A DNA stretch of 64,000 nucleotides from a virus (taxonomy: Duplodnaviria > Caudoviricetes). Made by a program: the position numbers and the translations under genes. The notes under the pieces were generated by a model. The model ran no database searches. It was not told where the DNA came from and saw only the letters and a program-made list of their open reading frames with translations. The stretch covers positions 224,001 to 288,000 of IMG/VR virus record IMGVR_UViG_3300046820_001270; one strand, written 5' to 3'. Positions 1,073 through 59,561 of the stretch are shown piece by piece. Each line of letters opens with the position of its first letter. The stretch's first letter is position 1.

Positions 1073-1080
1073 TATTTATA
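1073..1080 (+). promoter_or_regulatory. Putative late promoter TATTTAT(A/T), representative of the plus-strand copies
   Basis: Same 8-mer in sense orientation upstream of starts at 1073, 2910, 6236, 6998, 27817, 31471, 33303, 33690, 39787, 41799, 45036, 46558, 48481, 59537; nearly all precede virion or packaging genes. Confidence 0.7.
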
Positions 1081-1085
1081 CATAT

Positions 1086-2867
1086 ATGAATACTAGGACA
1101 CAACAGTTAATGGAATATGCGAAGATCATAAAAGATACTCCGTATGCACTTAGAACGTATTTACAAACATTCGATAATACACAGAAGAAGTATGTTCCAA
1201 TGGACTTGTTTGAAGATCAAATTCAACTAATTCAGGACTACGAAGACTACAACGAAAATATTACAAGAAAGTATAGACAAGCCGGTGTTACAACAGTAAC
1301 GGCAGCATGGTTATCAAAAAAATTACAATTAGCAAAACCCGATAATCCTGAGAGAGTCTTACTTATTGCAAACAAACGTGATACTGCGGTGGAGATGGCT
1401 AATAAGGTTAGACATTTCTTGGAACAATGGCCTGAATGGTTAAATGTTGGGTTCTCACCTGATAAAAACTCAGAAAGTAGATTTAGATTAAATAACGGTT
1501 GTGAGGTTAAGGCGGTCGCGACATCAGCGGATGCCCTTCGTGGTTATACACCTACGATACTTGTATTTGATGAGGCTGCATATATTGAAGCGGGAGATGA
1601 TTTTTGGGCGGCGTCTATGGCATCACTATCTACGGGTGGTAAGATTATTCTTATCTCCACTCCAAATGGTTATGACCCTATCTACTACGGTGTTTATGAC
1701 CAAGCATTACGAGGAATCAATGATTTCCATATCACAGATTTAAGATGGTTTAAAGACCCTCGTTATACTAAAGATTTACGTTGGATTAAATGTAAAGATA
1801 TCTGTCACTATATGTTAAATAGAGAACAGTATAATGATGATGAAGTCGTTTTATATGACTTTGACATGAAAGAATATCTTAAACTTATTGAAGATGGTTA
1901 TAAACCATTTTCATCTTGGTTTGAGTCTATGTCTAAGAAATTTAAATATGATAGACGTAAAATTGCTCAGGAGTTGGAATGTGATTTCTTAGGATCAGGA
2001 GATGGAGTTATTCCAAGTGATGTACAAGAAAACATAGCTAAAAACATGGTTAGAGAACCCATTGAAAAATATATGCAAGGTACATTTTGGCAATGGAAGG
2101 AACCAATTATAGGTCATCGTTATATTATGGGTGTGGACGTGAGTAGAGGTGATAGTGAAGATTTTTCTGCAATTTCAATTATTGATTTTGATGATAGAGA
2201 ACAAGTTGCCGAATATATAGGTAAAATACCTCCCGATGATTTAGCTGCTGTTGCATATAAATGGGCTATTCTATATGGTAATGCGTTTATAGTGACGGAT
2301 ATCACTGGAGGAATGGGGGTTGCAACGTCGAGAAAATTAACTGAGTTAAATTATAAGAACGTTTATGTTGAAGGGGTTAATACTCAAAACATTTGGGACT
2401 ATAATGCTAAGGCGATGGAGAAAATACCGGGACTTAACTTCAATAATAAAAGAACACAAATTGTTGCCGCATTTGAAGAACAACTTAGAAAAGGATTTAT
2501 TGTTAGATCCGCAAGATTATTAAATGAACTTAATACGTTTGTTTATTTAAACGGAAGACCTGATCACATGAAAGGTACTCATGATGATGCCATTATGGGA
2601 TTATCTATGGCATTATATTCCGCGGATATATCATTTAATCTTTTACAGAAAAATGAAAATGCTAACAAAGCAATGTTAGATTCTTGGACTATGACAGAAA
2701 GATCATATGAAACGAGTAAATCGTTTTATTCATATGGTACTGCATTTGATCAAATTGGTTCGATGGGTACGGATAATAATAACTTATATTATCAAGATAA
2801 TTCAATGAATGTTAGTAAACAAACATATCAAGAGAACTCGTGGTTATTTGGGGGTAGACGTAGATAA
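1086..2867 (+). CDS. terL: Terminase large subunit (T4 gp17-like)
   Basis: KYRQAGVTT Walker A, ILVFDEAAY Walker B, LISTPNG motif III, RuvC-like MGVDVSRGDSEDFS and HDDAIM; directly upstream of portal. Confidence 0.95.
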   Translation: MNTRTQQLMEYAKIIKDTPYALRTYLQTFDNTQKKYVPMDLFEDQIQLIQDYEDYNENITRKYRQAGVTTVTAAWLSKKLQLAKPDNPERVLLIANKRDTAVEMANKVRHFLEQWPEWLNVGFSPDKNSESRFRLNNGCEVKAVATSADALRGYTPTILVFDEAAYIEAGDDFWAASMASLSTGGKIILISTPNGYDPIYYGVYDQALRGINDFHITDLRWFKDPRYTKDLRWIKCKDICHYMLNREQYNDDEVVLYDFDMKEYLKLIEDGYKPFSSWFESMSKKFKYDRRKIAQELECDFLGSGDGVIPSDVQENIAKNMVREPIEKYMQGTFWQWKEPIIGHRYIMGVDVSRGDSEDFSAISIIDFDDREQVAEYIGKIPPDDLAAVAYKWAILYGNAFIVTDITGGMGVATSRKLTELNYKNVYVEGVNTQNIWDYNAKAMEKIPGLNFNNKRTQIVAAFEEQLRKGFIVRSARLLNELNTFVYLNGRPDHMKGTHDDAIMGLSMALYSADISFNLLQKNENANKAMLDSWTMTERSYETSKSFYSYGTAFDQIGSMGTDNNNLYYQDNSMNVSKQTYQENSWLFGGRRR

Positions 2868-2921
2868 CGTTTAGTTTATCATTATTTTAGTTTATATTAT
2901 AAAGAAAAGTATTTATATAGA

Positions 2922-4760
2922 ATGGCAAATCAAAATTTAACTGTATTTCAGAAATTAACAAAGATGTTTGGTTATCCAGGGAAACCTCAAGTAACACAGG
3001 CACCTACCTTTAATTTCAGTAAAGATGAATTACTAAAAACAGACAGTAGAGAAGAATATGAAAAAGCAATGTTACAGGCTCAACAGAGTCAATACATTGC
3101 CGATAAATGGACTAAATTAGATCAGTCTCTTTATAACCAATCGGTTTATTATGAACCAAATAGATTGGCCGCTTATTACGATTACGAAGCTATGGAGTTT
3201 ACTCCTGAGATATCAGCAGCATTAGACATATATGCGGAAGAGTCTACTACAATGTCAGAAAAAGGTCAAATTTTAACGATCTATTCTGAGTCAGATAGAA
3301 TTAAAGAAATATTAGAGGATCTCTTTAACAATAGATTAGACGTAAATACTAACTTACAAATGTGGACAAGAGGTGTTTGTAAGTATGGTGATAATTTTGT
3401 TTATTTAAAGTTAGATCCTGAGAAAGGTATTGTTGGATGTCAACAATTACCAAATATTGAAATTGAAAGATTGGAAGGTGCCGCGGGTAAAACTACAACA
3501 CAGAATAAAGATTTAAAAGTTCCGTCAAGAGAATTACGTTTCCAATGGAAGAACAAAGATTTGGAATTCCAAGCATGGGAGATTGCTCATTTTAGATTAT
3601 TAGGTGACGATAGAAAATTACCATACGGTACTTCAATGTTAGATAAGATTAGAAGAATTTGGAAACAACTTTTACTTGCGGAAGATGCCATGTTGATTTA
3701 TAGAACATCGAGAGCACCCGAAAGGCGTGTATTCAAAGTGTTTGTTGGTAATATGGATGATAAAGATATTGAATCTTATGTACAACGTGTTGCAAACAAA
3801 TTTAAAAGAGATCAAATTTCTGATCCACGAAACGGTCAAGTTGATATGAGATATAATCAAATGGCAGTTGATCAGGATTATTTTATTCCTGTTCGTGATC
3901 CATCACAAACAAACCCAATTGAAACTTTACCAGGTGCGCAAAATTTAGGTGAGATTGCCGATATTGAATATATCCAAAAGAAAATGTTAGCCGCATTACG
4001 TATCCCTAAAGCATTCTTAGGATTTGAAGAAGTTGTTGGTGAAGGTAAGAGTTTAGCATTAATGGATATTCGTTTCGCAAGAACAATCAACAGAATTCAA
4101 AAATCTGTTATTCAAGAGTTAAATAAAATTGCATTAATCCAATTATACCTTTTGGGTATGGAGGATGAATTAAATAATTTCTCATTGTCATTAACTAACC
4201 CATCAGCACAATCTGATTTGTTACGTATTGAACAATGGAAAGAGAAAGTTACACTTTACAAAGATGCAACATCGGATCAATCACAAGTGGGTATCTTACC
4301 TGTGTCTCATACATGGGCTAAGAAGAATATCCTTGGATTTAGTGATAGTGAAGTTATGTTGGATTTACAACAACAACGTTTAGAACGTGCATTAGGATTT
4401 GAATTAACAAATACTCAGAATGTTATTAAACGTTCAGGTGTGTTTGATGAAGTAGATGCTAAGTATGGTATTCCTGAAGAAGATAGAGAAAAGGCAATGG
4501 AAGCCGCGGGTGGAGCTGAAGGAGGAGGAATGGATATGGGTGGAGGAGGAATGGATATGGGTGGAGCACCACCGCCACCATCAGGTGGAGGAGAGGCACC
4601 ATTGAGTGAATCAACATTACAAAGAAAATCTAAAAAATCTAAGATTTTAAGTATGTTGGGAGAAGAAAAAGAAGATTTTAATATTCTATTTGATATGGAA
4701 AAGGCTCAACAGAATATTTATGAAATAGAGACGAAAATAAATGATATGTTAAACGATTAA
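2922..4760 (+). CDS. gp20: Portal protein (T4 gp20-like)
   Basis: YRTSRAPERRVFKVFVGN, EDAMLIYR and DYFIPVR-IETLPG motifs typical of gp20; Gly/Met/Pro-rich C-terminal tail. Confidence 0.92.
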   Translation: MANQNLTVFQKLTKMFGYPGKPQVTQAPTFNFSKDELLKTDSREEYEKAMLQAQQSQYIADKWTKLDQSLYNQSVYYEPNRLAAYYDYEAMEFTPEISAALDIYAEESTTMSEKGQILTIYSESDRIKEILEDLFNNRLDVNTNLQMWTRGVCKYGDNFVYLKLDPEKGIVGCQQLPNIEIERLEGAAGKTTTQNKDLKVPSRELRFQWKNKDLEFQAWEIAHFRLLGDDRKLPYGTSMLDKIRRIWKQLLLAEDAMLIYRTSRAPERRVFKVFVGNMDDKDIESYVQRVANKFKRDQISDPRNGQVDMRYNQMAVDQDYFIPVRDPSQTNPIETLPGAQNLGEIADIEYIQKKMLAALRIPKAFLGFEEVVGEGKSLALMDIRFARTINRIQKSVIQELNKIALIQLYLLGMEDELNNFSLSLTNPSAQSDLLRIEQWKEKVTLYKDATSDQSQVGILPVSHTWAKKNILGFSDSEVMLDLQQQRLERALGFELTNTQNVIKRSGVFDEVDAKYGIPEEDREKAMEAAGGAEGGGMDMGGGGMDMGGAPPPPSGGGEAPLSESTLQRKSKKSKILSMLGEEKEDFNILFDMEKAQQNIYEIETKINDMLND

Positions 4761-4762
4761 AA

Positions 4763-5509
4763 ATGAACAAATTCGGGGTTATTAAAACCAAATTATTAAA
4801 TAAGTTAACTGAATCTTACGCTAAAGAAAATAAAGCTGAGATAAAAAATATTTTAACAACAATTAAAGAAAACAAAGATTTCAAAGAAATGTATTTGTTT
4901 TACGAAGAAATTGAAGGTAAAACTATTTCAGATAAAGAAACTGCAAAATTATACGTTGAAGGTTTAAGTACATATTTTGGTCAACCGATAGGAAATTGGA
5001 GTAATTTAAATGTATTTTGTGAATCTTTAAACAAAAGATTAGGTGATGAAGAAGTAACAACAAATGAATTATATGAGTCTTTAGATATATTATCTGAAAA
5101 AGATTCATTATCAAATATTGAAAAGAAAGTTATTGCTAAAAAGAAATTAGTTGAACATTTAACAACTAAAAAAGAAATTACAGAATCAAAAGAAACTACA
5201 TTAGTTCCTAATGAAACTTTATTAAATGCTGTGTTAGCAAACAATTTCAATGTTTTATATTCTAACACATTATCCGAATCACAAAAAGAAGAGTTAAAAA
5301 ATATTTTATCAATTTCTTATGACGATTTAATTACTAAAAGTAATGAATTGGCCGAATCAGTTATTAAACAAGTATCTACACTTTTAAGTGAATCAAATGA
5401 TACAGATTTATCCAATAAATTAAAGGCGGTAAAAGATGAGGTAACTCAGATGTCTCCGTCGAGATATAACTATTACAGATTAAACGAATTAAAAAATGGA
5501 CTTAGTTAA
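4763..5509 (+). CDS. Probable prohead core or head assembly protein
   Basis: Lies between portal and protease; helical and Glu/Lys-rich with several (L/I)xES sites resembling prohead-protease cleavage sites. Confidence 0.45.
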   Translation: MNKFGVIKTKLLNKLTESYAKENKAEIKNILTTIKENKDFKEMYLFYEEIEGKTISDKETAKLYVEGLSTYFGQPIGNWSNLNVFCESLNKRLGDEEVTTNELYESLDILSEKDSLSNIEKKVIAKKKLVEHLTTKKEITESKETTLVPNETLLNAVLANNFNVLYSNTLSESQKEELKNILSISYDDLITKSNELAESVIKQVSTLLSESNDTDLSNKLKAVKDEVTQMSPSRYNYYRLNELKNGLS

Positions 5510-5524
5510 GTCCATTTCTTTTTT
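5491..5524. terminator. Bidirectional terminator embedded in two convergent gene ends
   Basis: AAATGGACTT-AGTT-AAGTCCATTT perfect 10-bp stem, A tract on the left and T tract on the right. Confidence 0.7.
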
Positions 5525-5693
5525 GTTGTATATAAACTGCTTTTAACTTTTCAGTTCTTTTCTTAACTGAAGGTTTAGTAAAGACTTGTCTTTCCCTCAA
5601 TTCTTGAACTTGTTTAACTTTTTGAACTTTATGTTTGTAAGTTCTAAGTGCAGTTTCTATACTTTTTTCTTTTGATAAATCTACTATAATCAT
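5502..5693 (-). CDS. rpsU: Phage-encoded 30S ribosomal protein bS21
   Basis: 63 aa, basic; IETALRTYK...LRERQVFTKPSVKKR...KAVY matches bS21 (F.KPS..R); position between portal and protease as in described bS21 phages. Confidence 0.92.
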   Translation of the reverse strand: MIIVDLSKEKSIETALRTYKHKVQKVKQVQELRERQVFTKPSVKKRTEKLKAVYIQQKRNGLN

Positions 5694-5697
5694 ATAT

Positions 5698-5742
5698 TAT
5701 AAATATACTACAAATATATGAAATTATTTTTGGTTATTCCAA
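5698..5742 (-). promoter_or_regulatory. Dual promoter region of the bS21 gene
   Basis: Minus strand reads TTGG-N20-TATATTTG (5742-5711, Bacteroidota sigma70 type) then TATTTATA (5705-5698), 4 nt before the ATG. Confidence 0.65.
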
Positions 5743-5795
5743 GTATTTTCTTTATTTTTTATAAACACCATAAGAAATAATAATATGAATAATTA

Positions 5796-6221
5796 ATGAA
5801 AACAGGTAAGTATATCCCTTTAGGGACTTACAATGATGTAAAGATCGGTTATGGTACCGTAGATTTTAAAAATCTTAAAACCATTTACTTAAAGTTAAAT
5901 TCGTGGGTACAACCCGAAAATGAAACTGATGATTTTGATCACATGATTCATAAATCAAGAAGAAAAGTTAAAGAAATAATCTATAATCTTAAAACCCCTT
6001 ATTTTAAACAACAATCTATTGTTGACTTAGATATTAGAACAAAGGGAATTAAATTAGAAAAGAGATCTTTTATGAACTTGGAAATCACATTATATGTTGA
6101 TAATCAGTTCGACGTTAAATCAAAAGAAATTAAAAATAACATAAAGGATATTCTAATTTATGTTATAGAAGATGGTCTTTCTGATAAAAAACTATTCAAT
6201 TTTTACAAATCCAAAAAATAA
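5796..6221 (+). CDS. Hypothetical protein in head module
   Basis: 141-aa ORF with phage-like codon use, divergent from rpsU. Confidence 0.7.
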   Translation: MKTGKYIPLGTYNDVKIGYGTVDFKNLKTIYLKLNSWVQPENETDDFDHMIHKSRRKVKEIIYNLKTPYFKQQSIVDLDIRTKGIKLEKRSFMNLEITLYVDNQFDVKSKEIKNNIKDILIYVIEDGLSDKKLFNFYKSKK

Positions 6222-6259
6222 TAGGGATATCGATGTATTTATAGTAATAAAATCTATAA

Positions 6260-6943
6260 ATGAAGATATTAGGACCCAAAGAACTTGGAACAGGAATTTT
6301 AATAGAATACGACGCAGGACACGTATCTCCAGACGAGAACAAAAAAATTATACAGGAAATGAAGGGTGTGGACTTCTCAGAAGACCTAATCCTTTATGCT
6401 GTCTTACAAAAATTCGATACTCCAAATAAGAACGGAAGGATATATCCTGAAATGTTACTTAAAAGAGAGAACGAAAAATATCAATCACTTATTAAGAAGG
6501 GAGGAGCATTAAACGAATTAAATCACCCTTCATCTTCACTAATCGATTTAGATAGAGTATCACACTCAATTTTAGAAACTTGGTGGGACGGTAGAATCCT
6601 TATGGGTAAAATCAAGTTATTCACTTCTCCTGGATGGAAGAAGATGGGTATCGTTTCAACCAAAGGAGACCAAGCTGCAATGTTATTAATGAACGGAGCA
6701 ACTCTTGGTATCTCTTCACGTGGTGTAGGATCACTTAAACAAGTTAAAGGAGAAAACATCGTACAAGATGATTTCGAATTAGTTTGTTTTGATTTAGTAT
6801 CATCACCATCAACTCCCGGAGCTTATATTTTTAAGGACCCATCAGAAAGAGACCAATATCAAGAAGCTGAAATCAAGAAACCAACACTTGACAGTAGAAT
6901 GTCAAAACTTATGGGCAATTTAGATACATTTTTATCTAAATAA
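6260..6943 (+). CDS. gp21: Prohead core protease (T4 gp21-like)
   Basis: NKNGRIYP, ELNHP (His), GISSRG (Ser), FDLVSSPS motifs. Confidence 0.93.
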   Translation: MKILGPKELGTGILIEYDAGHVSPDENKKIIQEMKGVDFSEDLILYAVLQKFDTPNKNGRIYPEMLLKRENEKYQSLIKKGGALNELNHPSSSLIDLDRVSHSILETWWDGRILMGKIKLFTSPGWKKMGIVSTKGDQAAMLLMNGATLGISSRGVGSLKQVKGENIVQDDFELVCFDLVSSPSTPGAYIFKDPSERDQYQEAEIKKPTLDSRMSKLMGNLDTFLSK

Positions 6944-7032
6944 TAAACTTTATAGGGGCAGTAATATTAAAAAACACGATTTTTTACTAAATCGTAGTAT
7001 TTATAAGATAATAAAAACAATTAATTTTCACA

Positions 7033-8313
7033 ATGAGCGAAAAATCAATTTTAGAACAAGCGTTACTTCAAGTGCAAAATCTTGAAGAAGCAGTTAAGCA
7101 AAATGCAAAAGGTATACTTGCTTCAACAATGAAGGAAGAACTTAAAGATTTGCTAAAAGAATCATTGGAAGAAGAGGAAGATGTTGACGTTATGGAACAA
7201 CCAGAAACTGAAACTGATCCTGAAGGAGAGGAAGAACAAGATGTGGCAGCTGACGACGAAGAAACAGACGATGAGTCTGAAGAAGACGTTGATACAGATG
7301 TTGATACAGATACAGACCTCGATAACTTAGACTCAACAGATGACGTTGATTCAGATGTTGACGCTGACGTTGACATGGATGATATGAGTACCGATATGGA
7401 TACTGATATGGAATCTATGGATGACGAAGGTTCAATGGATGATGAAGACGTTATGGATATGACAAGTGCTTCAGACGATGAAGTTCTTAAAGTATTCAAA
7501 GCTATGAAACCAGAAGATGGTATCGTAGTTAAGAAAGACGGTAACAATGTTGAATTCGGTGACGGTGAAGATGAATACATTATCAAATTAGATGGTGAAG
7601 ATTCTGATGTCGATGCTGGAATGGACATGGGTGCTGACTTTAGTTCAGATGTTGATTCTGACGTTGATTCCGACGTTGAAATGGATGAAATGGATATGGA
7701 TGTGGATGCTGATATGGACACTGATACAGATGTTGATGGTGAAATGGAAGCTGACGAAGAAACTATCTATGAAATCGAATTAGACGAGGAAGATGAGGTT
7801 GAAGAACCTAAAAAAGTTGAAGCTACTGAAGCTGCACGTACAAAATCAAACCCTCACGGAAACAAGAATGGTATGAAAAGAGCTGGTTTACCATCTAAAA
7901 AAATGTACAAGGCAGGATCTGGTATCAACGAACAAGTTGAAACATTGAAAAAACAAAATGCTGAATATAAAAAGGCATTAGTATTATTCAAGGATAAACT
8001 AAATGAAGTTGCAGTATTCAATGCAAACTTAGCTTACGCTACACGTTTGTTTACTGAACATTCAACTACAAAACAAGAGAAATTGAACATATTAAAGAGA
8101 TTTGATACAGTTTCTACTATGAATGAATCTAAAGGTTTATTCAACACAATCAAAACTGAATTAGGTTCAAAAACTACGGTTACCGAATCAGTTGCGACAA
8201 AAATCTCTAACACTCCATCAACATCTTCTTCTACAGAGGTATTATCTGAGTCAAAAGCTTACGAAAATCCTCAATTCAGTAGAATTAAAGAAATGATGAG
8301 AAAAATAAAATAA
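7033..8313 (+). CDS. Prohead scaffolding/core protein (gp22-like)
   Basis: Very acidic DxD-rich centre, C-terminal coiled coil, many LxES/EA sites; sits between protease and capsid. Confidence 0.8.
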   Translation: MSEKSILEQALLQVQNLEEAVKQNAKGILASTMKEELKDLLKESLEEEEDVDVMEQPETETDPEGEEEQDVAADDEETDDESEEDVDTDVDTDTDLDNLDSTDDVDSDVDADVDMDDMSTDMDTDMESMDDEGSMDDEDVMDMTSASDDEVLKVFKAMKPEDGIVVKKDGNNVEFGDGEDEYIIKLDGEDSDVDAGMDMGADFSSDVDSDVDSDVEMDEMDMDVDADMDTDTDVDGEMEADEETIYEIELDEEDEVEEPKKVEATEAARTKSNPHGNKNGMKRAGLPSKKMYKAGSGINEQVETLKKQNAEYKKALVLFKDKLNEVAVFNANLAYATRLFTEHSTTKQEKLNILKRFDTVSTMNESKGLFNTIKTELGSKTTVTESVATKISNTPSTSSSTEVLSESKAYENPQFSRIKEMMRKIK

Positions 8314-8338
8314 ATTAAAAACAAAATACAATTTTAAA

Positions 8339-10105
8339 ATGGGAGCATTATTAGAATCAGGTATGGTAGGTAACATCGGTCTTAAGCACCTTAGAGTTAT
8401 CAAAGAAGATACCATCAAAAAATGGGACGAATTAGGCTTTTTAGAAGGTCTTGACGGTCACCAAAAAGATAACATCGCACAATTATATGAAAACCAAGCG
8501 TCTTACTTAATCAACGAAGCAGCAGTAGCTGATGCGTCTGGTTCTTTCGAGACTGTAGTTTTCCCTATCATTCGTCGTGTATTCTCTAAATTATTAGCTA
8601 ACGACATCGTGTCTGTACAAGCTATGAACTTACCAATCGGTAAATTATTCTATTTCATTCCTAAAATTCAGGAAAGAGATGGTAATGGTCACTACTCACC
8701 TTATGGTGGTGCGAACAACGATTTAGGTTTACCACAGAACGCACAATCAGGTTATCCTGCTGGAAAGAGAAGTTTATATGATCGTTTCTACGAAGCTAGT
8801 GACGATTTAGAACAAGGTCTTTTTGATTACTCAAAAGGAGCTTTCTCTGTTCAATCATTAACTGTAAATGGTTTCACAACTTTCTCTAATGGTGTGGTTG
8901 ATGTTAGTACAAGTGCAATTGCAACAGGTACAACAAAATCAAATGTTATTTTAGCATTATCTGGTTTCACATCAGCAGGTGCAGGTAAATTAAAAGGACC
9001 AGACGGTAATGAAATGGATTCTGAAGAATTCTTAGCTTCATTACAAGTGTTCACTTCAGATGCTAACTTATTAGCTTTCTTAGGTGCGACTACAGGTACT
9101 TCTTTACCAATCAATATCGTTACTCAAAAGTACGGTAAAGGTATCGTAGAATACGGTGCTAAAACAACTAACTCAACACAAAACTACTATGATATTTGTG
9201 ATGCTGATGGTGTTATCTATGTTCAAGTAGATTTACAAAAATACAGTGCAACTGCAGGTTTCGTTGATTACGTTGTAACTGGTTCAACATTAGCTAGAAC
9301 AGAATTCAACGCATCTTATCGTAAGTATGCAACTTTGGAATTTGAAGAGCAAATTGGTGAAGTATCTTTTGATTTAGAATCAGTAACAGTTTCTGTAACT
9401 GAAAGAAAATTAAGAGCTAGCTGGTCTCCAGAATTAGCACAAGATGTTAGTGCATTCCACAACATCGATGCTGAAGCTGAATTGACAGCTTTATTATCAG
9501 AGCAAATCGCTGCCGAAGTTGACCGTGAAATCTTACGTGATTTACGTAAAGGTGCAGCATGGAAAGCTAAATGGGATTACAATGAGTGGAAATACGGTGG
9601 TGCAAACGGTGCAACTTTACAAGGTTACACACAGAAAGATTGGAACCAAACTTTGGTTACAAAAATCAACCAAATTTCAGCTCAAATCCACAAAACTACG
9701 TTAAGAGGTGGTGCTAACTGGATCGTTATTTCTTCAGAGATTTCTGCAGTATTTGATGATTTAGAGTATTTCCACGTTTCTAACGCAGAACCAGAGCAAG
9801 ATCAATATAACATGGGTATCGAGAAAATCGGTTCAGTAGGTGGACGTTACCAAGTGTATCGTGATCCTTACTTCCCAGCGAACAAGATCTTGATTGGTCA
9901 TAAAGGTAAGTCTTTGTTAGATGCAGGTTATGTATACGCACCATATGTGCCATTACAGTTAACCCCTACAATGTACAATCCGTTCAACATGACTCCGATC
10001 AAAGGTATCATGACTCGTTACGCAAAGAAAATGGTAAACAACCGTTACTTTGGTATCATCGATGTTCAAGGTATTCAATCTTTCGGATTAGATACATTAA
10101 GATAA
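8339..10105 (+). CDS. gp23: Major capsid protein (T4 gp23-like)
   Basis: DIVSVQAMNLPIG, RKLRASWSPELAQD, AEVDREIL and YAPYVPLQ motifs; highly biased codon use; strong terminator downstream. Confidence 0.95.
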   Translation: MGALLESGMVGNIGLKHLRVIKEDTIKKWDELGFLEGLDGHQKDNIAQLYENQASYLINEAAVADASGSFETVVFPIIRRVFSKLLANDIVSVQAMNLPIGKLFYFIPKIQERDGNGHYSPYGGANNDLGLPQNAQSGYPAGKRSLYDRFYEASDDLEQGLFDYSKGAFSVQSLTVNGFTTFSNGVVDVSTSAIATGTTKSNVILALSGFTSAGAGKLKGPDGNEMDSEEFLASLQVFTSDANLLAFLGATTGTSLPINIVTQKYGKGIVEYGAKTTNSTQNYYDICDADGVIYVQVDLQKYSATAGFVDYVVTGSTLARTEFNASYRKYATLEFEEQIGEVSFDLESVTVSVTERKLRASWSPELAQDVSAFHNIDAEAELTALLSEQIAAEVDREILRDLRKGAAWKAKWDYNEWKYGGANGATLQGYTQKDWNQTLVTKINQISAQIHKTTLRGGANWIVISSEISAVFDDLEYFHVSNAEPEQDQYNMGIEKIGSVGGRYQVYRDPYFPANKILIGHKGKSLLDAGYVYAPYVPLQLTPTMYNPFNMTPIKGIMTRYAKKMVNNRYFGIIDVQGIQSFGLDTLR

Positions 10106-10123
10106 TCTTAATATTATCAATAG

Positions 10124-10152
10124 AAAAACCCTCGAGAAATCGGGGGTTTTTT
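10124..10152 (+). terminator. Intrinsic terminator after capsid gene
   Basis: AAAAACCCTCGA-GAAA-TCGGGGGTTTTTT stem with GAAA loop and T tract. Confidence 0.88.
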
Positions 10153-10155
10153 ATT

Positions 10156-10187
10156 TTTGGTATATTCTAAATAAAGTTGTATATTTG
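10156..10187 (+). promoter_or_regulatory. Bacteroidota-type sigma70 promoter
   Basis: TTTG-N20-TATATTTG matches the -33/-7 consensus TTTG/TAnnTTTG; ATG follows 4 nt later. Confidence 0.75.
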
Positions 10188-10191
10188 TAAT

Positions 10192-10488
10192 ATGGAATAC
10201 GAAAACCTACGTTTAGACATACTAACCAAACTCATAGATGAGAGGGGAATTGTATGTAAAAACAAGAAAGATGTAATGATTGAACACCTCAAAATGGACG
10301 ATGAGGGGAAATATGTTCGTGAAACTACCTACGAAAAGTGGGAAGGTCGGTTTTTGGTGGGTATAGACCTTAAAAACGGACCTCATTTAATACAAATGGG
10401 TAAGTTAGTGGAAAAGAAAGAGGCGTCTCCTAAGGGTCTTTATGCATCAGATAGAGTATATTTTCTTTCTGGTCAAAAATTAATTTAA
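10192..10488 (+). CDS. Hypothetical protein, possible N-terminal SAP/HeH-like helical motif
   Basis: ATG 10192 chosen over the TTG at 10177, which overlaps the promoter; LTKLIDERGI...KKDVMIEHL pattern. Confidence 0.6.
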   Translation: MEYENLRLDILTKLIDERGIVCKNKKDVMIEHLKMDDEGKYVRETTYEKWEGRFLVGIDLKNGPHLIQMGKLVEKKEASPKGLYASDRVYFLSGQKLI

Positions 10489-10489
10489 A

Positions 10490-11239: not shown

Positions 11240-11240
11240 A

Positions 11241-11897: not shown

Positions 11898-11901
11898 AAT
11901 A

Positions 11902-11909: not shown

Positions 11910-11912
11910 GTT

Positions 11913-13295: not shown

Positions 13296-13318
13296 CTTTT
13301 TTATTAATAAATATCAAA

Positions 13319-48502: not shown

Positions 48503-51500
48503 ATGCCAAAATACCTAGATTTTGATGCTACTAAGGATTTTAGGGATAAAATGTTAAATAGGACATTAAATCCTGTTTATGGAAAAAGTCCGTCCCCTAA
48601 AACTTTTACAAGTTCTAACTATAGTATCCAAACTTTAGGAGATAGTCCAAATTTATTATTACCTCAAGTTGATGGTAATAGGTCAAATGATCTATTAATA
48701 CCACAAAAATCAAATGTTTTTAAACCAAATGAATATTTTGTTAAAGACAGTATTAATGATATACCTAGAAGAGCAAATTTAAATTTATATCCATATTTTA
48801 TCCAAAGTGACGATAATTTAATCGGTATAATGTTAACTAAAAACTACGATACCGAGTCTGAATTATTTAAATTTGCTGCAAATAATATAAGAACCAACCC
48901 ACAAGGTCCGGTTTTAGCGAGAATCAGTAAAAATCTTAATACCGCAATTAATGCAAAAAATAAAATAGGTGAGGCTTTAGGTGGTAATACAACTACATTG
49001 ATTAATATTATTAGAGGTAAACAACCTTTAATTGAGGGAAATGAAAGTATCACGGTATCAAGTAGTTTATTAGGTAAAGGATTTGATTTTTTACAGACAG
49101 TTGCAGGAACTCAATTACCTTTTAGTACAATACCAGGTGATTATTTAACAAATCCCCGTAATCCGATTAATATAAGACCGACTAATGTTTCTACAGGAAC
49201 AAAGGTTTGGCAAGATTTAACAGGGGTTTTAGGGTCAATAGTGGGTATTCAAAGAAGACCACTACCATCAAGAAAACCATCTGATATTTTGATTGAACAC
49301 ATGGGTGAATCATCAAAAAATAGATTATTTGATTTATTGAGTTTTTCTAAATACGCACCAAATTACACAACCACTGCGAGATCACAAATGTCCACCAATG
49401 TTGGTAGAATCCCAAGTCAATTTGCACAAGGAATTAAGAACGCATTAGGAATGGAGGCACCAAATAGTGGTGCATATATAGGTGATGATAGAGAAAATGA
49501 TGTAAAAAATGCCACCACAGATTTGTTTAGTGGAAGACCTGTAAGAAGTAGTTATTATCTTACATTAATGTTTGATAAAGTTGCTGCAGAATTATTTCAT
49601 AAAAATAGAGGTATTACTGAAAACGGACCAATTGGTGGTAATTTAACTTGGTTAAGTAAAAATGGAACAACAAAAGACATTAGTTTTCAATATATTAATG
49701 AAGACATATCGACAAAATATAATTTTAGAGAGGATTCTATTTTAAATATTACACAACAAATATTAGACTCAAAACCACAAAATGGTGGAGATGCTTTATC
49801 ACATATAGGTCACGTATTAGATCAAACAAGTAGATATTTTAAAGATGGTGATACATTAATTTCCAGAGGTTCAGGTGTACGTTATATGGATAACTCAGGT
49901 AAAGATATTGGTGTTGAATATGCTAGAGTATGGACAAAAGATAGACCTTATTTTACATATGGTGATACAATGCCATTATGGAAAGAAAGTGTAAAAAAAC
50001 CATATTATAATGGTGCAACAGGAGGTACAGGAGATACTACTAATAGTAAAAGTAATTTTTATAGAAGAACAGGTATTAGAAGATTTGATGGTAGTGTAAT
50101 GACAAATCCGTGGAATTTAAATATTGCACCAATGTCAGACGGAACTACAAATCCAGAATTTCCTGGATCATCTAATATAATTAAAAACCCAAAAGGGAAT
50201 GGATTTTACGCTAAAAAATATATGTTATCTATTGAAAATTTAGCATGGGCGGCGTCAACACTTCCGGGTTATACTGTAAATGATTTACCATTTTCAGAAA
50301 GAGGACCAAATGGAGGCCGTGTTATGTGGTTTCCACCATATGATTTGAAAGTGTCTGAACAAAATAGTGCAAAATGGGAACCAAATACATTTTTAGGTAG
50401 ACCAGAACCAATATATACATATCAAAATACAGAAAGAAATGGTAGCTTATCATTCAAAGTAATTGTCGATCACCCAAGTATATTAAATTTACTAATAAGA
50501 GAACATTTTAAATCTGTTAATGATGAAGATGTTGATAAATTTTTAAACGCATTTTTTGCAGGAGCAAAGGATATTGATTTTTATAGTTTAATCAGACAAT
50601 ATTCACATTTAGATTCGGACGATATAAAAATGATTCAAAATTATCTAAATGACGGTGGAAGTCCTTCAGATATAAAAAGACGTAAAACAGCAACATCATC
50701 ACCTACACAAGATAATCCAGGTGGAAGTGATAGTTTTGATGCAAATAAAGATAAGGTAAATGAAACATTAAATTTTTATTTTCTAAACGCCTTTCCTGAA
50801 GCCGGAGACGACTTATTTAAATCAAATATGTCATTTGATTTAGTAAGTAATGGTACAATTTTAGATACCAAAATTCAAGAAAAAAATAAACAATTATTAA
50901 GAGAGTCATTAAATAAAATTATAAACAGTACCGACACAAAAGATATTGAGGATAGAGAAAGTATTTTTAAAAGAAAAGATATTCCAAGTGATCAAACAGG
51001 TACCACAATAAATAAAAAAATAACAGAACTTGAAAATATTTTTACCGAATCAACCACATCAAATAGTAAACTAATAGATATATTAACAAAATTAAAGAAA
51101 GATTTAAAAGATGAAAATATTGAAGGAGATGTTGTTGTAAATGTTAGCTCATATACATCAAAGGCGGGAGAGGAAAATTTAAATTTTAACCTTTCATTTA
51201 GAAGATCACATTCTTTATTTTTATATCTTTTTAATAATATCAAAAAAGACGGTACTAATATAGATTTAAAAAAATGGACGTTTTCAAAATTAGAGTCTGA
51301 CGTACCGGCAAAAGGAAAAGAAAGATTTGTTATTGAAAAAGAATTTTCAATAAAAGAATTAGGTTATAATGGAGAAGGAAGTGTAATTTTCAGATCAAAC
51401 AATTTTGGTGCAGATAATAATTTACAATCAGGATATTGTAATACTACAAATTATAATGACATTTCTTTAACATATTATGCTCCGAGTTCATATGGGTGTA

Positions 51501-53296
51501 GATCTACAGAATTTATTATTGAGTATGCTAAATCTAAAAAAGAAGACAAAGCATCAAACGCCTCAGTAAAAAATTCATTAGGACCTACAGGTAATATACC
51601 AAGTAGTAATACAAAACCTCCAATAGATGTGATGAAAAGAATCATCATGAAGACTTTATCTGAACAGTATTACTTTAAAAAGTTGGAAGAGACTTCACCA
51701 ATGATTTACACATCATTAAAAGAAAAATTAAAATATTTTCATCCGGGTTTCCATTCAATGACACCTGAAGGATTAAACTCACGTTTAACATTTTTACAAC
51801 AATGTTTACGACCTGGTAATACAATACCGGTGAAAGGTTTATCAGACAATTCAGATATTAACGCAAGAAATACAACATTTGGACCACCACCTATTTGTGT
51901 TTTAAGAGTTGGAGATTTTTACAATTCAAAAGTTATTATAAAAGATCTTAATATACAATTTGAACAAAATGTATGGGATATGAACCCAGAAGGTATTGGT
52001 ATCCAACCAATGATTGCGGACGTAACAATGCAATTAAGTTTCTTAGGAGGACACGGTTTAGAAAAACCTGTAGAAAGATTACAGAATGCTTTGTCATCTA
52101 ATTTCTTTGCAAATACTGAAATGTATGATGAAAGATCTGAATCAACCAATACTAAAATGGGAGGTAAAGATAGTGAAGACTTTACAAGGGAATTTTTACA
52201 AAGTTTAAATGACACACTATTACCAATAACTGGTTTAAAAGATAGTAATGGAAAAGGATATACTGAAGGTCAATATATTGGTACAATTTCTCCTTCCGAT
52301 AAAACGATAGATTATACTACATTAATAAATGATGTATATAAAAGTGTGGAACCATATTTTACCACATACGAAAAAATGTACAATAGTTTAACAAAACAAT
52401 ATGGACATAAAATTGTGAATTTGATGGTTAATAAAACTGAAAGAACAAATAACAAATATGACATATATAGTTCTTCGGGAAATACAACACCAAATCAAGT
52501 TTTGTTATTTGGTAATTTTAAAGACACCTCACCTTTTTCAAAAACTATTGAGACATTAATTGTAAGATTTGAAGTATATCTAACACTCCAAAAAGAAAAC
52601 GAAAAGTACTCAGTTTTAAAATTATTAAAAATTGACGATGATATAACAGATGATCTTAAAGATTTTTATGAAGAAGGTCTTTATGATCATTTTAAGACAT
52701 TCTTTAAAGAAAAAGTTGGAGATTTTGCTTCATCTAAAATTGCAAAAGATTATGAAGATATAAGAAATAAATTAATTGTAAGTTTAGATAAATTAAATAC
52801 CGTTATTAAATATAATGCGGATTTTAAGATAGATAAAAATAAAATTTATAAATTAACAATTACAGGAGATACATCTGAAATGTATAGTGAATATAGTTCA
52901 TGTATGGATTTCATAAAAAGTAATGAACCTAAAATGTATAAAAAATTAGATACATCATTATCTAGTTCATTGGACGACGAAAAAATGAGGGATATTATCT
53001 ATACCGTTTTTTATAATGATTATACGAATGCGTTGGATAATATTGAAAATCAATTTGATACGGAAGATGAAGAAAGTTCTAAAATTGTAGATAAGATTAG
53101 AAGAAAATTAGGTAGAGATTTTTATGAAACTAAAGATATTAATATGGGATTTGGTAAGGTACCAACATTAAAAAATTCTAAAAAAGTGTCATTTGATTAC
53201 ACAGATGAAATATTAGATGAAAATGACGATATTAAAAAACTGTATTCTACACAATATAAACCATCGGACGATAAATTAAATTATTATAAAAAATGA
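48503..53296 (+). CDS. Large baseplate protein with tube-initiator-like and OmpA-like domains
   Basis: FLGRPEPIYTYQNTER and PPICVLRVGDFY tube-like motifs; N..LS.RR and RSTEFII OmpA-like pattern at about 50760-51530. Confidence 0.6.
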   Translation: MPKYLDFDATKDFRDKMLNRTLNPVYGKSPSPKTFTSSNYSIQTLGDSPNLLLPQVDGNRSNDLLIPQKSNVFKPNEYFVKDSINDIPRRANLNLYPYFIQSDDNLIGIMLTKNYDTESELFKFAANNIRTNPQGPVLARISKNLNTAINAKNKIGEALGGNTTTLINIIRGKQPLIEGNESITVSSSLLGKGFDFLQTVAGTQLPFSTIPGDYLTNPRNPINIRPTNVSTGTKVWQDLTGVLGSIVGIQRRPLPSRKPSDILIEHMGESSKNRLFDLLSFSKYAPNYTTTARSQMSTNVGRIPSQFAQGIKNALGMEAPNSGAYIGDDRENDVKNATTDLFSGRPVRSSYYLTLMFDKVAAELFHKNRGITENGPIGGNLTWLSKNGTTKDISFQYINEDISTKYNFREDSILNITQQILDSKPQNGGDALSHIGHVLDQTSRYFKDGDTLISRGSGVRYMDNSGKDIGVEYARVWTKDRPYFTYGDTMPLWKESVKKPYYNGATGGTGDTTNSKSNFYRRTGIRRFDGSVMTNPWNLNIAPMSDGTTNPEFPGSSNIIKNPKGNGFYAKKYMLSIENLAWAASTLPGYTVNDLPFSERGPNGGRVMWFPPYDLKVSEQNSAKWEPNTFLGRPEPIYTYQNTERNGSLSFKVIVDHPSILNLLIREHFKSVNDEDVDKFLNAFFAGAKDIDFYSLIRQYSHLDSDDIKMIQNYLNDGGSPSDIKRRKTATSSPTQDNPGGSDSFDANKDKVNETLNFYFLNAFPEAGDDLFKSNMSFDLVSNGTILDTKIQEKNKQLLRESLNKIINSTDTKDIEDRESIFKRKDIPSDQTGTTINKKITELENIFTESTTSNSKLIDILTKLKKDLKDENIEGDVVVNVSSYTSKAGEENLNFNLSFRRSHSLFLYLFNNIKKDGTNIDLKKWTFSKLESDVPAKGKERFVIEKEFSIKELGYNGEGSVIFRSNNFGADNNLQSGYCNTTNYNDISLTYYAPSSYGCRSTEFIIEYAKSKKEDKASNASVKNSLGPTGNIPSSNTKPPIDVMKRIIMKTLSEQYYFKKLEETSPMIYTSLKEKLKYFHPGFHSMTPEGLNSRLTFLQQCLRPGNTIPVKGLSDNSDINARNTTFGPPPICVLRVGDFYNSKVIIKDLNIQFEQNVWDMNPEGIGIQPMIADVTMQLSFLGGHGLEKPVERLQNALSSNFFANTEMYDERSESTNTKMGGKDSEDFTREFLQSLNDTLLPITGLKDSNGKGYTEGQYIGTISPSDKTIDYTTLINDVYKSVEPYFTTYEKMYNSLTKQYGHKIVNLMVNKTERTNNKYDIYSSSGNTTPNQVLLFGNFKDTSPFSKTIETLIVRFEVYLTLQKENEKYSVLKLLKIDDDITDDLKDFYEEGLYDHFKTFFKEKVGDFASSKIAKDYEDIRNKLIVSLDKLNTVIKYNADFKIDKNKIYKLTITGDTSEMYSEYSSCMDFIKSNEPKMYKKLDTSLSSSLDDEKMRDIIYTVFYNDYTNALDNIENQFDTEDEESSKIVDKIRRKLGRDFYETKDINMGFGKVPTLKNSKKVSFDYTDEILDENDDIKKLYSTQYKPSDDKLNYYKK

Positions 53297-56600: not shown

Positions 56601-59521
56601 AAAATGGTACATACGTAAGTTACGAAGATCAAATTTTTGAACTTGACCCGATATTTGATCCTGGAATTACTTTTGTAGTTACGGGACATACCGACGTAGG
56701 AATACACCCTTATTATGATGATATATTTTATAATATCGTAAATGGAGAAAATTATTTTGATTTTGTAACTGGAAATACTACCGATTATTATAATAAAATA
56801 ACAGGAGGAACATTAAATTTAAAAAATGATGTTTTAGCATATAGTGGAGGTACATTATATTATTGGACACAATATGTTGATGATAGTAAAGTAAACAATA
56901 AAAAGAATACATTTACATTATTACCATCTACAGGAGATAATCTTTTTAAAGGTAAAAAACAATCATTAACAAATGTTAATGAAAATCCATTTTCAAACAA
57001 TTCGTTTGAAATAGAAGAACAAAATAATTTTAGAATAGTTTGGGACGATGAATTAATCAGTAGTAATTTTAGTGGGCAAACATTTGCATCACCTATAGAA
57101 CACACAACTACAATTTCGGGAAAATACGGAATTCAAAATATAACCGATAATTATAAAAAAGTTATGGATTTAATTGCTACATTTAATCCAACAATTTTAG
57201 ATGAATTTGAAAAATATTTTTTATTGTTTGCATCTGAAAAACTTAACTTAAGTGTTTCTGATAAACCTTTTAATGGAGTAGTATTAGATAAATTTCAAGA
57301 TTTATTAAAAGAAATAGTTACAGTACAAAAAGATGTAAAAAATTCTACATCTAACCAAATTTCTATTTTAAAAGAAAAACAAAAAACTAAATTAGAAGAT
57401 ATTAGTAAATTAATTTTATCAAATGATAATTTGATAAAAATTACAATAGGTAATCCTAAAGAATTTGATCCACATACGTTAATTGGTTTTATAGGTGTAG
57501 ATAAAAAAAATACATTTAAATACAACACATATAAAGGTGAATTTGATGGATCTCAGAGTGATGAAAATGTTGATTTAATAAATCTATATTTAGGACCTGA
57601 ACCCGAATACGGGGATTATCAGGATTTCTTTATAGATAATAACATAGAATTTAACGAGGAAAACGTACAAATTTTCAGACCATTAATTTATATATATGCC
57701 GGTTATAAAAATAGTAGTTTTTATAACACAACACCAAACTTTAAACAATATCTTAATGAGTCTATCTTTACCAAATCGGGAGGAGTTGATGAAAGATTAA
57801 ATACATTTTTACTTACATTAATACCTAAGTTTCAAAAAGAATTTAAAATTCAAGAAGACCCAACTAAAATTACATTTTTTGATGGATATAATAATAAACC
57901 ATTAAAAGTTGAATTGTATAATTTCTTTAAATCCATGAACGATAAATGGATTGCCGGTAATTCAATTGGTCAAAGATCGTTGTTAGAAGAATTTTTATTT
58001 TTAGATAGGGCCAATAAAGATATTGGAAATGATTATTATTTTGATTTAACAAGGTTAACCAATATGGGAGACCCTAAAAATTCAAAACAAAGTTTATATG
58101 GTGCTTTATCAATTTTACTACAAGGAACGGGATTTGATATGAGGGCATTACCGGCTTATATTAATTTTTATGGAAATACTTTTTCTAAAAATCCTAAATT
58201 AGTACCATCAAAAAGAATTGCACAAAATCTATTTGGAACATTTTTAGATGTCGATTATCAAGAGTCTCTACCAAAAATTGTAATTCAATATGTTGGTAAG
58301 AATTCGACAAGACCTGAGATGGAGAAAAAAGGTAAATTTAAATTTAGTGACGATAGTTTTAATGTTGGTAATGTTAATAATAATCCACTTATGGTTACTT
58401 TACCTAAAGTATTTAAAACAGGCGATTTAACAAAGTCTAACAAAGTAGTTGCATTTGAAGTAAGTTTTGGTGACCAAAACCAAAGTATTTTTAAAGGAAT
58501 ACAATTAGATCAAGCTTCAATTAAAAATACAAGTGAATCTTTTTATGTATTAGAAAACTTAGCAAGATCCGAATCGGGTTCGTCATCACATAATGTTGAT
58601 ATCGGTTTATATGATTATTATAGACAGGCCTCTTATACTTGTGATGTCACATGTATGGGAAATGTTATGATACAACCAACAATGTATTTTTACCTTAAAA
58701 ACGTACCAATGTTTAAGGGAACGTATTGGATTAGTGAGGTAGCACATTCAATTAAAAGTGGATCGATAACGACTACATTCAAAGGATCAAGAATACCGTA
58801 TACGGCTCTTCCTGATTTAAAAGATTCATTTATGTCAAGTTATCGTACATTATTTGATAAATTACAACAAAAGGCAGTTAATAGAGTTAATGGTGCGGAT
58901 AAGGTTACAGAAACAAGTAAGACCATAACAAATCAAAACGGTGAAAAATTCACATTTGATATGGGAGATTTAAAAAAATCACCTTCTGGTGAAAAACTTG
59001 TCGAGGGAGATGCTTCATTTACACCTCAAGCGGGTATTCCATTTAACGGATATGCAGATTTTAGATATATTACTAAAGTCAAATATCCTAATGAAAATAG
59101 TCTTTGGTTAAGAGCAATTGTGGCTAGAATGGGTGAGAAGAAATATCCAATAAAAGATGAAGTTGTCATGTCAGTAGTTTCATCAAATAGTAAAATCATA
59201 ACAAGTCCTAAATTTACGTGGAAACAAGCGTCTGAATTTACAAACGATTATTATTTTTATGCAACAAAATTCTTATTTGATAAAGTACCCGCATCAAAAG
59301 TTACAACGTTAACCTCAACGTTTTTTAATCCAGCAAATAATGTAACAATTATAGTTCCACCAAAATATGAATTAAATGATAAAACCACAACTCCTATTGA
59401 ATTCTCAGGTCCAATTGATATAATAAGAGATGAGGAACCATATGGTATGGTATTATCTTCTAAGTTAATGTTAGACTTAGGTTTACAAGATGGTGATATT
59501 GTTTACTTCAATGTTGGATAA
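53606..59521 (+). CDS. Very large baseplate hub protein (gp27/VgrG-like)
   Basis: FGIDNITI...FLDVRGKTLF...FYLTVKGFYG N-terminus and V.CMGNVMIQP.MYF.L...F.G.YWI.EV.H.I C-terminal hub motif. Confidence 0.65.
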   Translation: MENNKITNTEDIHVKVDQNNLIYIDPNSTIDSQGNISPRNIKAENLVMYVNLEADIIPRSILAADNTTNTLTSIAKGTLNFLKNNDGGDYDTSWTNSFLNSEEKKNGSGTLTGEFFQSDKSGQTFGIDNITINIKGFNSIPTINITFLDVRGKTLFESPENSPYKAFFHIPWPIFYLTVKGFYGKAIRYRLHMVKFTSKFNESNGNFEVNTSFVGSTYAYLSDIPLQGILNAPYLFPYESSKVTETNTGTNREKETVKKSTKGYEILKTVYNEYKLKGLIKEDFPVKTLKEVMTISKTLDTLLEKQIFDQVVDMRIFAGLKQFQEDIDKFEEAVIGWGKLNLESEPEPSLTQSTTDPNNPKLFFLVKSNPRTDRSKGIDGPDEDGTFEHLLKFYGDKIRESQLLSDVIQNQKIKQNPLLNKTGSNFSTKSLGISKVGNMELYIDDKNHPNKFIGIAIQKLLDDVREIRTKFEQQREKLQRQVEIKMNEIVRDKTKGFGFEPTIRNIFAVILANAEVLIRLMKDVHKKAFDQAETRKMVVSRFSKESMGDSIYPWPELKATVKGKENTIIYPGDPDWQAYLGSENAQRWPEVAFLETYIGVTTNKVDPLAEKEASINKLSNTIQNDSDIKKIKKISTANEVVNILPYVNKSPDSFIYELYERSFHYSVIESFNKTATWEKLADLEFGNIQESVEDENGLRKLLIQNIKDKTTLISQLEKLSPFEKYSYYKDSLPTTDYLKSFYEQSFIIEQYVSSNSVDDKKLYQFLDEELQNFTPETYRKNIYPYSSNVYLNYISTGVTSITDSLLNCRNFLSVDTTQGLVSGEVNPLFWLKNGVTSNLFSKKFTLTNTKVNILNTPFFHRQLFSDFNTIGSSSGKYAGSAYLLLNSLAFTDLDEIKIGTTKTDSKPYTFLTSSLFKEIGSSQYVPYHLILKWGSIYHRHKKFIKEGVDIIGDVYDGNSLVKEGAVKTGSTETLIGFQTNKLDGRTFFDNGNDLVFEPENGTYVSYEDQIFELDPIFDPGITFVVTGHTDVGIHPYYDDIFYNIVNGENYFDFVTGNTTDYYNKITGGTLNLKNDVLAYSGGTLYYWTQYVDDSKVNNKKNTFTLLPSTGDNLFKGKKQSLTNVNENPFSNNSFEIEEQNNFRIVWDDELISSNFSGQTFASPIEHTTTISGKYGIQNITDNYKKVMDLIATFNPTILDEFEKYFLLFASEKLNLSVSDKPFNGVVLDKFQDLLKEIVTVQKDVKNSTSNQISILKEKQKTKLEDISKLILSNDNLIKITIGNPKEFDPHTLIGFIGVDKKNTFKYNTYKGEFDGSQSDENVDLINLYLGPEPEYGDYQDFFIDNNIEFNEENVQIFRPLIYIYAGYKNSSFYNTTPNFKQYLNESIFTKSGGVDERLNTFLLTLIPKFQKEFKIQEDPTKITFFDGYNNKPLKVELYNFFKSMNDKWIAGNSIGQRSLLEEFLFLDRANKDIGNDYYFDLTRLTNMGDPKNSKQSLYGALSILLQGTGFDMRALPAYINFYGNTFSKNPKLVPSKRIAQNLFGTFLDVDYQESLPKIVIQYVGKNSTRPEMEKKGKFKFSDDSFNVGNVNNNPLMVTLPKVFKTGDLTKSNKVVAFEVSFGDQNQSIFKGIQLDQASIKNTSESFYVLENLARSESGSSSHNVDIGLYDYYRQASYTCDVTCMGNVMIQPTMYFYLKNVPMFKGTYWISEVAHSIKSGSITTTFKGSRIPYTALPDLKDSFMSSYRTLFDKLQQKAVNRVNGADKVTETSKTITNQNGEKFTFDMGDLKKSPSGEKLVEGDASFTPQAGIPFNGYADFRYITKVKYPNENSLWLRAIVARMGEKKYPIKDEVVMSVVSSNSKIITSPKFTWKQASEFTNDYYFYATKFLFDKVPASKVTTLTSTFFNPANNVTIIVPPKYELNDKTTTPIEFSGPIDIIRDEEPYGMVLSSKLMLDLGLQDGDIVYFNVG

Positions 59522-59561
59522 TAACTAAACTTGGGATATTTATATTAATAAAACAAATATT

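Follow-up and report, generated by a model that had tools for sequence, protein, structure and literature searches.

A probable late-promoter box set close to start codons, and a candidate gp55-type sigma factor to read it, in an uncultured T4-like phage

Introduction

Where do the messages for particle-building genes begin in the giant phages of fresh water, and how much leader do they carry? The question is raised by a 64,000-nucleotide stretch of DNA from an uncultured T4-like myophage (IMG/VR virus record IMGVR_UViG_3300046820_001270, positions 224,001 to 288,000; hereafter the window, numbered from its first letter). The window is AT-rich (~31% GC) and only 2429 of its bases (3.8%) are non-coding, and the 8-base word TATTTATA, written here as TATTTATW with W for A or T, recurs before its particle-building genes. 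An original prediction took this word for a late promoter from which leaderless or near-leaderless mRNAs are made, with leader length tracking the copy number of the product. Our analysis indicates that the word is very probably a late promoter built on a −10 element only, that a gp55-type sigma factor encoded in the window is its probable reader, and that messages from the boxes closest to ATG codons are likely to be leaderless.

A near-DNA search against isolated phages returned no match to the window, and the top matches of its large terminase gene (terL), from Microcystis phage Mel-JY01 and the Flavobacterium immuto phages, are ~30% identical. The window belongs to the lineage of giant freshwater phages with bS21 genes that Chen et al. 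described in 2022 (PMC9723584). Their genomes reach ~331–334 kb, their predicted hosts are Bacteroidota and, as in the window, a reverse-strand gene for ribosomal protein bS21 is embedded in the head block of terL, portal, protease and capsid genes. The text of that study makes no mention of promoter, motif, sigma or leaderless, and literature searches on the box word and on Flavobacterium phage late promoters found no description of a scheme like the one outlined below.

Results

Counted on both strands of the whole window, TATTTATW occurs at chance level, with 37 copies against 37.45 expected. The evidence that it is a signal lies in position and strand rather than in this total: 23 of the 37 copies fall within the small non-coding share of the window, and all 23 are in the sense orientation toward the downstream gene. 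The 50-nt segments preceding 56 genes contain 21 sense copies, compared to 2.9 ± 1.7 (maximum 11) in dinucleotide-preserving shuffles (n=2000). The enrichment over shuffled sequence that would be expected of a promoter is thus present, and the previously reported tally of 22 sense copies of TATTTAT(A/T) upstream of gene starts, together with its division into gap classes, was reproduced exactly.

T hardly ever precedes the box at intergenic sites, whereas it is the usual preceding base at copies inside genes. Between positions −45 and +12, sequence information is confined to the 8-mer and this preceding base, as judged from 24 sites in the window and 37 sites in a relative. No −35-type element, nor any conserved position between −45 and −2 of the box, was found among the same sites. 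The genes served by boxes are those for terL, portal, protease, the scaffold/capsid unit, sheath, tube, adaptor and fibre, and the window also encodes a T4 baseplate protein among its virion genes. Replication and metabolic genes of the window include gp32, a UvsX-like RecA, a family-B DNA polymerase (polB), PhoH and dUTPase; PhoH, dUTPase, gp32, RecA and an SNF2 helicase are without boxes. Some names given earlier to boxed genes (gp14-like, tape measure, BppU-like and ParB-like) find no support in PHROGs or Pfam.

Eleven boxes end 3–5 nt before an ATG codon. On the forward strand, the box at 1073–1080 lies 5 nt before the terL ATG (1086; gene 1086–2867), where a terminator hairpin at 1042–1067 and its T-tract run directly into the box, and the box at 2910–2917 lies 4 nt before the portal ATG (2922; gene 2922–4760). 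Further forward copies are found at 27817–27824 (5 nt before an in-frame ATG at 27830), at 33303–33310 (4 nt before gene 33315–33671, within a 14-nt intergenic gap), at 39787–39794 (5 nt before gene 39800–40312) and at 46558–46565 (3 nt before gene 46569–48452). On the reverse strand, the box at 5698–5705 stands 4 nt before the bS21 ATG (5693) with a host-type TATATTTG box adjoining it at 5711–5718, and that at 11902–11909 stands 4 nt before gene 11241–11897, within a 15-nt intergenic gap. The remaining reverse-strand members are at 17449–17456 (3 nt before gene 17068–17445, directly downstream of the sigma gene described below), 22061–22068 (4 nt before gene 21652–22056) and 25058–25065 (3 nt before gene 24470–25054). 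The modal gap in this close class is 4 nt, and gaps of 0–2 nt occur neither in the window nor in the 217-kb relative introduced below.

Assignment of the 27817 box to the close class holds only if translation starts at ATG 27830, and fails with the longest-open-reading-frame start at 27809. The sequence here is identical in the 217-kb relative, and 27830 is probably the true start of the gene, the start at 27809 being wrong. This box and the reverse-strand box at 27792–27799 form two back-to-back late promoters.

Seven boxes have gaps of 7–17 nt. Those on the forward strand are at 6236–6243 (16 nt before the prohead protease gene, 6260–6943), 31471–31478 (7 nt before gene 31486–33300), 48481–48488 (14 nt before gene 48503–53296) and 59537–59544 (17 nt before gene 59562–59765). 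On the reverse strand are 13306–13313 (10 nt before gene 11913–13295), 27792–27799 (15 nt before gene 27021–27776) and 37787–37794 (15 nt before the head-tail adaptor-like gene, 36656–37771). Three forward boxes are set farther away: 6998–7005 lies 27 nt before gene 7033–8313 and also serves the gp23-type capsid gene (8339–10105, forward strand), which has no late box of its own, while 41799–41806 and 45036–45043 lie 37 nt before the sheath gene (41844–44753) and 39 nt before the tube gene (45083–45571), respectively, each with an A/C-rich leader. The product of 7033–8313 has no family match, and its label ‘scaffold’ is the name used in the original prediction.

The last sense copy, at 33690–33697 on the forward strand, is 64 nt before polB. 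We treat it as a probable chance occurrence and not as a promoter, because no box lies within 90 nt of the polB start in the 217-kb relative.

Conservation was examined in a collinear 217-kb contig with 80–91% DNA identity to the window and in 80 further viral contigs. In the 217-kb relative the box and its gap (within 1 nt) are kept at 19 of 20 orthologous sites, the polB copy being the exception. Throughout that contig, sense boxes occur within 100 nt of 41 genes, and the gaps peak at 3 (three genes), 4 (seven genes) and 5 nt (five genes). A box 3–4 nt before the portal gene is present in all 81 sequences, in which TATTTAT is invariant while the letters of the spacer vary; the second codon of the gene wobbles (GCA, GCC, GCG), indicating that the portal ATG is really translated. 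At terL the gap is 3–6 nt in 56 of 58 relatives, in which the hairpin and box are likewise kept. Spacing is looser in the leadered units, with gaps of 13–20 nt before the protease gene (54/54 relatives) and 18–27 nt before the scaffold-like gene corresponding to 7033–8313 (48/48). Indeed, the spacing of the close class as a whole is held far more tightly than that of the leadered class.

The capsid gene lacks a box in 38 of 38 relatives, and Chen et al. (PMC9723584) noted that this gene may be co-transcribed with its upstream gene. The map of boxes in the window explains their further remark that the gene block is not a single operon.

Before the bS21 gene, a late box at the spacing seen in the window is present in only 11 of 58 relatives, and most relatives keep only the host-type TATATTTG box, ~19 nt before the bS21 ATG; both boxes occur together only in the sub-clade of the window. 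The earlier placement of this gene (rpsU) in the late class is not supported by most relatives, which lack the late box. The protein may be made from the host-type promoter as well as, or instead of, the late one.

Several boxed starts are preceded by terminators. Across relatives, the stem of the terL hairpin varies in a compensatory manner (GGTGG/CCACC, GGAGG/CCTCC, GGGAG/CTCCC, GACGG/CCGTC), and the terminator (1042–1072 in the window) is always fused to the late box. By this arrangement, any terL message that does not arise by read-through must start within ~13 nt of the ATG. In the 217-kb relative a terminator lies directly upstream of 5 of 37 boxed starts, compared to 2 of 173 others, and three of the five are at close-set genes.

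A candidate reader of the box is encoded on the reverse strand at 17460–18161 (P0001), a gene without a late box of its own. Its product matches the PHROGs family phrog_234, ‘late sigma transcription factor’ (E 8e-5), and T4 gp55 in PDB chain 7d7c_F (E 7e-4). The AlphaFold2 model of the protein (pLDDT 91.8) aligns with gp55 over 117 residues with a Z of 10.7 and an rmsd of 5.0 (VIA structural alignment), and the modelled fold likewise aligns with region 2 of many other sigmas at Z ~9. A Foldseek search with the whole model gave no match at E ≤ 0.001, because the domains sit differently. Residues corresponding to R57, F86 and Y97 of gp55 are kept, whereas H95, which lines the −9 pocket, is replaced by Y in the window and by F, also aromatic, in immuto.

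This protein belongs to a family of at least 1287 clusters at 50% identity (E ≤ 0.001, public data) that is unannotated. Members lack a Pfam domain in precomputed tables, and some are labelled ‘SpoVK/Ycf46/Vps4 family AAA+-type ATPase’ by JGI; the homologues in the immuto and Mel-JY01 records are named ‘hypothetical protein’.

Among isolated phages, a detectable homologue of the window sigma is found only in the immuto phages and Mel-JY01. In both, the same box precedes terL, portal and further structural genes. Each has 10 genes with a sense box within 60 nt, compared to ~1.5 expected. In immuto, whose host is Flavobacterium, gaps are mostly 11–23 nt and Shine-Dalgarno-like words are absent. 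In Mel-JY01, whose host is the cyanobacterium Microcystis, gaps are 12–36 nt and such words precede 21 of 38 genes. Leaders thus fit the mode of translation start used by the host, and the terL and portal leaders of these phages are 16–33 nt long.

Judged from these sequences, the box travels with the phage sigma and not with the −7 element of the host, because Mel-JY01, with its cyanobacterial host, shares both box and sigma. On the same observation, the proposed link to the host −7 element TAnnTTTG is not supported. Bacteroidota sigma-A promoters carry TAnnTTTG at −12 to −5 and TTTG near −33 (PMC7366714, PMC9723704). The late box resembles them in being AT-rich, in opening with TA and in its similar distance from the start site, but differs in lacking the TTTG core and the −33 partner, in its presence in a Microcystis phage and in the set of genes it serves. 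The window does contain host-type boxes, among them those upstream of bS21 and of the glycosyltransferase gene 23194–24417; a spot check of the pattern TTTG-N19/20-TATATTT, previously ascribed to metabolic genes, showed a few intergenic instances.

The close-set layout is special to the lineage of the window, and carriage of bS21 does not predict it. A link between phage bS21 and the leaderless layout was considered and dropped: Mel-JY01 has bS21 together with long leaders bearing Shine-Dalgarno-like words, and immuto, with gaps of 11–23 nt, has no bS21.

The geometry of the close class bears on where its transcripts would start. If the box is placed in the T4 register (−13 to −6), a +1 on the A of ATG predicts a gap of 5 nt, and in the Flavobacterium sigma-A register (−12 to −5, PMC9723704) it predicts a gap of 4 nt. 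Close-class genes are depleted in the A that other genes commonly have at −3 of the ATG. A T at −1 is found in 13 of 16 close-set genes compared to 78 of 194 others (p 0.003), and in 8 of 9 compared to 17 of 45 in the window; this fits the usual start-site rule of a pyrimidine at −1 and a purine at +1.

RNA data were available as four metatranscriptome runs over positions 1–20000, in the form of assembled contigs of relatives that are mostly 90–95% alike and that cannot define starts, strand or expression level. These contigs revealed no position in that interval where many molecules begin or end. One of them, 246 nt long, ends 2 nt inside the portal ATG, a weak hint of a leaderless start there.

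Three further regions attracted attention during the survey. Behind the capsid gene, a gene-poor segment of 384 nt (10106–10489) holds a strong terminator (10123–10152) followed by a host-type promoter-like sequence, TTTG-N20-TATATTTG (10156–10187). No convincing open reading frame, tRNA or Rfam match was found in this segment; it may hold the gene for a small RNA or protein. Scans of the entire window against Rfam and for tRNAs were also empty. The 329-nt spacer between sheath and tube (44754–45082) contains a terminator, an inverted repeat, ctagaactagatattctag, and two extra TATTTATT copies (44890 and 44908) that serve no open reading frame. Finally, ACACCATAA(A) at 5765–5773, ~25–30 nt before gene 5796–6221, is kept in nearly all relatives. 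We rejected it as a window-wide motif since it is not repeated elsewhere in the window, and it could be a control element specific to this locus.

RNA libraries from at least 17 freshwater and estuary studies contain pieces of the capsid region (6900–10150) or of close relatives, indicating that the phage group is widespread and present in RNA libraries.

Discussion

Position, strand, the genes served, conservation and the presence of a gp55-type sigma in the window all agree with the assignment of TATTTATW to a class of late promoters, and we hold that assignment with high confidence. In the scheme we favour, V-TATTTAT-W would be the −10-type box of late promoters that have no −35 element, and host RNA polymerase carrying the phage gp55-type sigma (17460–18161) would read it. 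The adenines at −12 and −8, which T4 gp55 flips into deep pockets, are kept, with TT rather than AA as the central bases. There would be one box per late transcription unit, in some cases immediately after a terminator. With a box ending 3–5 nt before ATG (11 of 21 credible sites), initiation would fall on the A of ATG and give mRNAs that are leaderless or carry leaders of 1–2 nt, and the remaining units would give A-rich leaders of 7–39 nt. As a whole, with late box, sigma and leaderless close class combined, this explanation is somewhat better than even in our estimation. Position, strand, gene class, conservation and co-occurrence with the sigma family are observed; the identity of the sigma at the box, the transcript start points and the translation of leaderless messages are inferred.

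The T4 late box, TATAAATA, spans −13 to −6, has a known A variant at −13 and is accompanied by no −35 element (PMC2988020). T4 gp55 flips the adenines at −12 and −8 into deep pockets and holds the −9 base in a shallow one (PMC7892883). The promoters described here are alike in being 8-bp AT-rich −10-type boxes without −35 elements that occur in many copies, on both strands, before virion genes (PMC2988020, PMC7892883). The phage itself is T4-like (gp23 capsid, baseplate protein, gp32, UvsX-like RecA) and encodes a gp55-type sigma, and six of the eight box positions, including the adenines at −12 and −8, are identical. However, the sense strand of the window reads TATTTATW and not TATAAATA: the central AA is replaced by TT at −10/−9, which reverses the polarity of the outer palindrome TAT..ATA relative to T4. 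The window sigma (233 amino acids) has a different C-terminal half and lacks the H95 of the −9 pocket. In T4, recognition of late promoters by gp55 also involves the co-activator gp33 and the gp45 sliding clamp. T4 late genes have leaders with Shine-Dalgarno sites, whereas half of the boxes in the window abut ATG.

A closer parallel to this last feature comes from the Thermus phages YS40 and Lalka27a, whose late promoters carry a special −10 element ~six bases before the start codon and whose mapped 5′ ends place the beginning of most late transcripts at the initiator A or G (bioRxiv 10.64898/2026.04.20.719267). Their box is TAGGGT, no phage sigma has been named for it, and the host phylum commonly uses leaderless messages (PMC12340547), whereas the presumed host phylum of the window rarely does.

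A number of observations weigh against the scheme. Sequence similarity to gp55 is weak (E ~1e-3 to 1e-4), the sigma-family profile scores SigA region 2 slightly higher than gp55, and the C-terminal half of the protein may be a sigma-4-like domain. No gp33 homologue was identified, although no search was aimed at gp33, and no clamp homologue was identified in a PF02916 search that matched nothing, its controls included. Leaderless mRNAs make up 5.5% in F. psychrophilum, and 3.7% of 5′ untranslated regions in B. thetaiotaomicron are shorter than 10 nt; this rarity in Bacteroidota makes leaderless expression in the phage a more interesting conclusion and a less safe one. A gap of 3 nt, the commonest at terL and portal in relatives, sets the A two bases nearer to the box than the T4 start. 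In addition, many close-set genes follow another gene without a terminator, and the polycistronic RNA made by read-through could be translated.

This last point is the basis of the strongest competing account, in which the box is a late promoter and close-set genes are made mainly by read-through from upstream boxes, with transcripts that start at ATG being minor or poorly translated. Several close-set boxes do occupy 14–15 nt gaps between same-strand genes that lack a terminator; the scarcity of leaderless mRNAs in Bacteroidota and the 16–33 nt terL and portal leaders of immuto and Mel-JY01 would also agree with it. However, terL and two other close-set genes in the 217-kb relative lie directly behind a conserved terminator, and leader lengths elsewhere vary much more than the 3–5 nt spacing. 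The enrichment of T at −1 and the depletion of A at −3 are expected for choice of a start site and not for translation. We consider read-through as the main source of these messages to be unlikely, and initiation at or next to the ATG to be the probable origin of the close class. The original prediction of leaderless late mRNA is supported in part: the geometry of the boxes at 3–5 nt would place +1 on the A of ATG.

Two other accounts dispense with a sense promoter. The box could act in RNA, either by being cut by an endoribonuclease of phage or host or by binding a translational regulator near the start codon; the word is AU-rich, it adjoins AUG at half of the sites, and T4 controls translation via sites at initiation regions. 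A role in RNA is poorly compatible with distances to ATG that range from 3 to 39 nt in the window and from 11 to 36 nt in immuto and Mel-JY01, with the terminator directly upstream at terL, which leaves little RNA to carry the word, and with the absence of the word from the heavily used capsid gene. The word also co-occurs with one sigma family and shares six of eight positions with the T4 late box, and we regard this account as improbable. The true signal might alternatively be a T4-type WATAAATA on the other strand that directs transcription away from the neighbouring start codon. The earlier description of the box as the reverse complement of the T4 box is right in that WATAAATA matches the T4 consensus, including the known A variant at −13, but it supplies no mechanism, and the sense strand is itself the T4 box with AA changed to TT. 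A gene on the opposite strand to be served exists at only 4 of 23 intergenic copies, the others would produce antisense RNA into the preceding gene, and an antisense start at terL would run into the terminator hairpin. Since the tight sense spacing to ATG would also be left unexplained, we rejected the antisense box, which we judge very improbable, in favour of the sense −10 box.

The idea that leader length tracks copy number fares less clearly. It is true that the scaffold/capsid unit, the sheath and the tube have the longest leaders (27, 37 and 39 nt, A/C-rich) and that these are kept in relatives, but the three units were chosen post hoc. Tentatively, one might extend this to a widespread lineage of giant Bacteroidota phages: about half of their late units could be leaderless, compared to ~4–6% in the host phylum, with leader type serving as dosage control (none for low-copy parts, A/C-rich for capsid, sheath and tube) and with phage ribosomal proteins that might tune the ribosome. 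We offer this as a speculation that is doubtful in its present form.

The scheme described here is a variant of T4 late transcription in which the late-promoter assignment is well supported and leaderless expression is probable. It provides a promoter map for a phage group that is common in lakes and estuaries and is seen in many metatranscriptomes, and for which no transcription signals were known before. It also pairs a large unannotated family of gp55-type sigmas with a candidate box. A box in which the outer T4 bases are kept and the centre is swapped constitutes a natural experiment in how gp55-type sigmas read −10 elements, and the occurrence of the same box-sigma pair in the cultured phages immuto and Mel-JY01 makes it testable in culture. 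The box can be used to correct gene starts, as with 27830 in place of 27809. If the close-set messages are truly leaderless, they would pose the question of how translation of such messages begins during infection on the ribosomes of Bacteroidota, which disregard Shine-Dalgarno sites.

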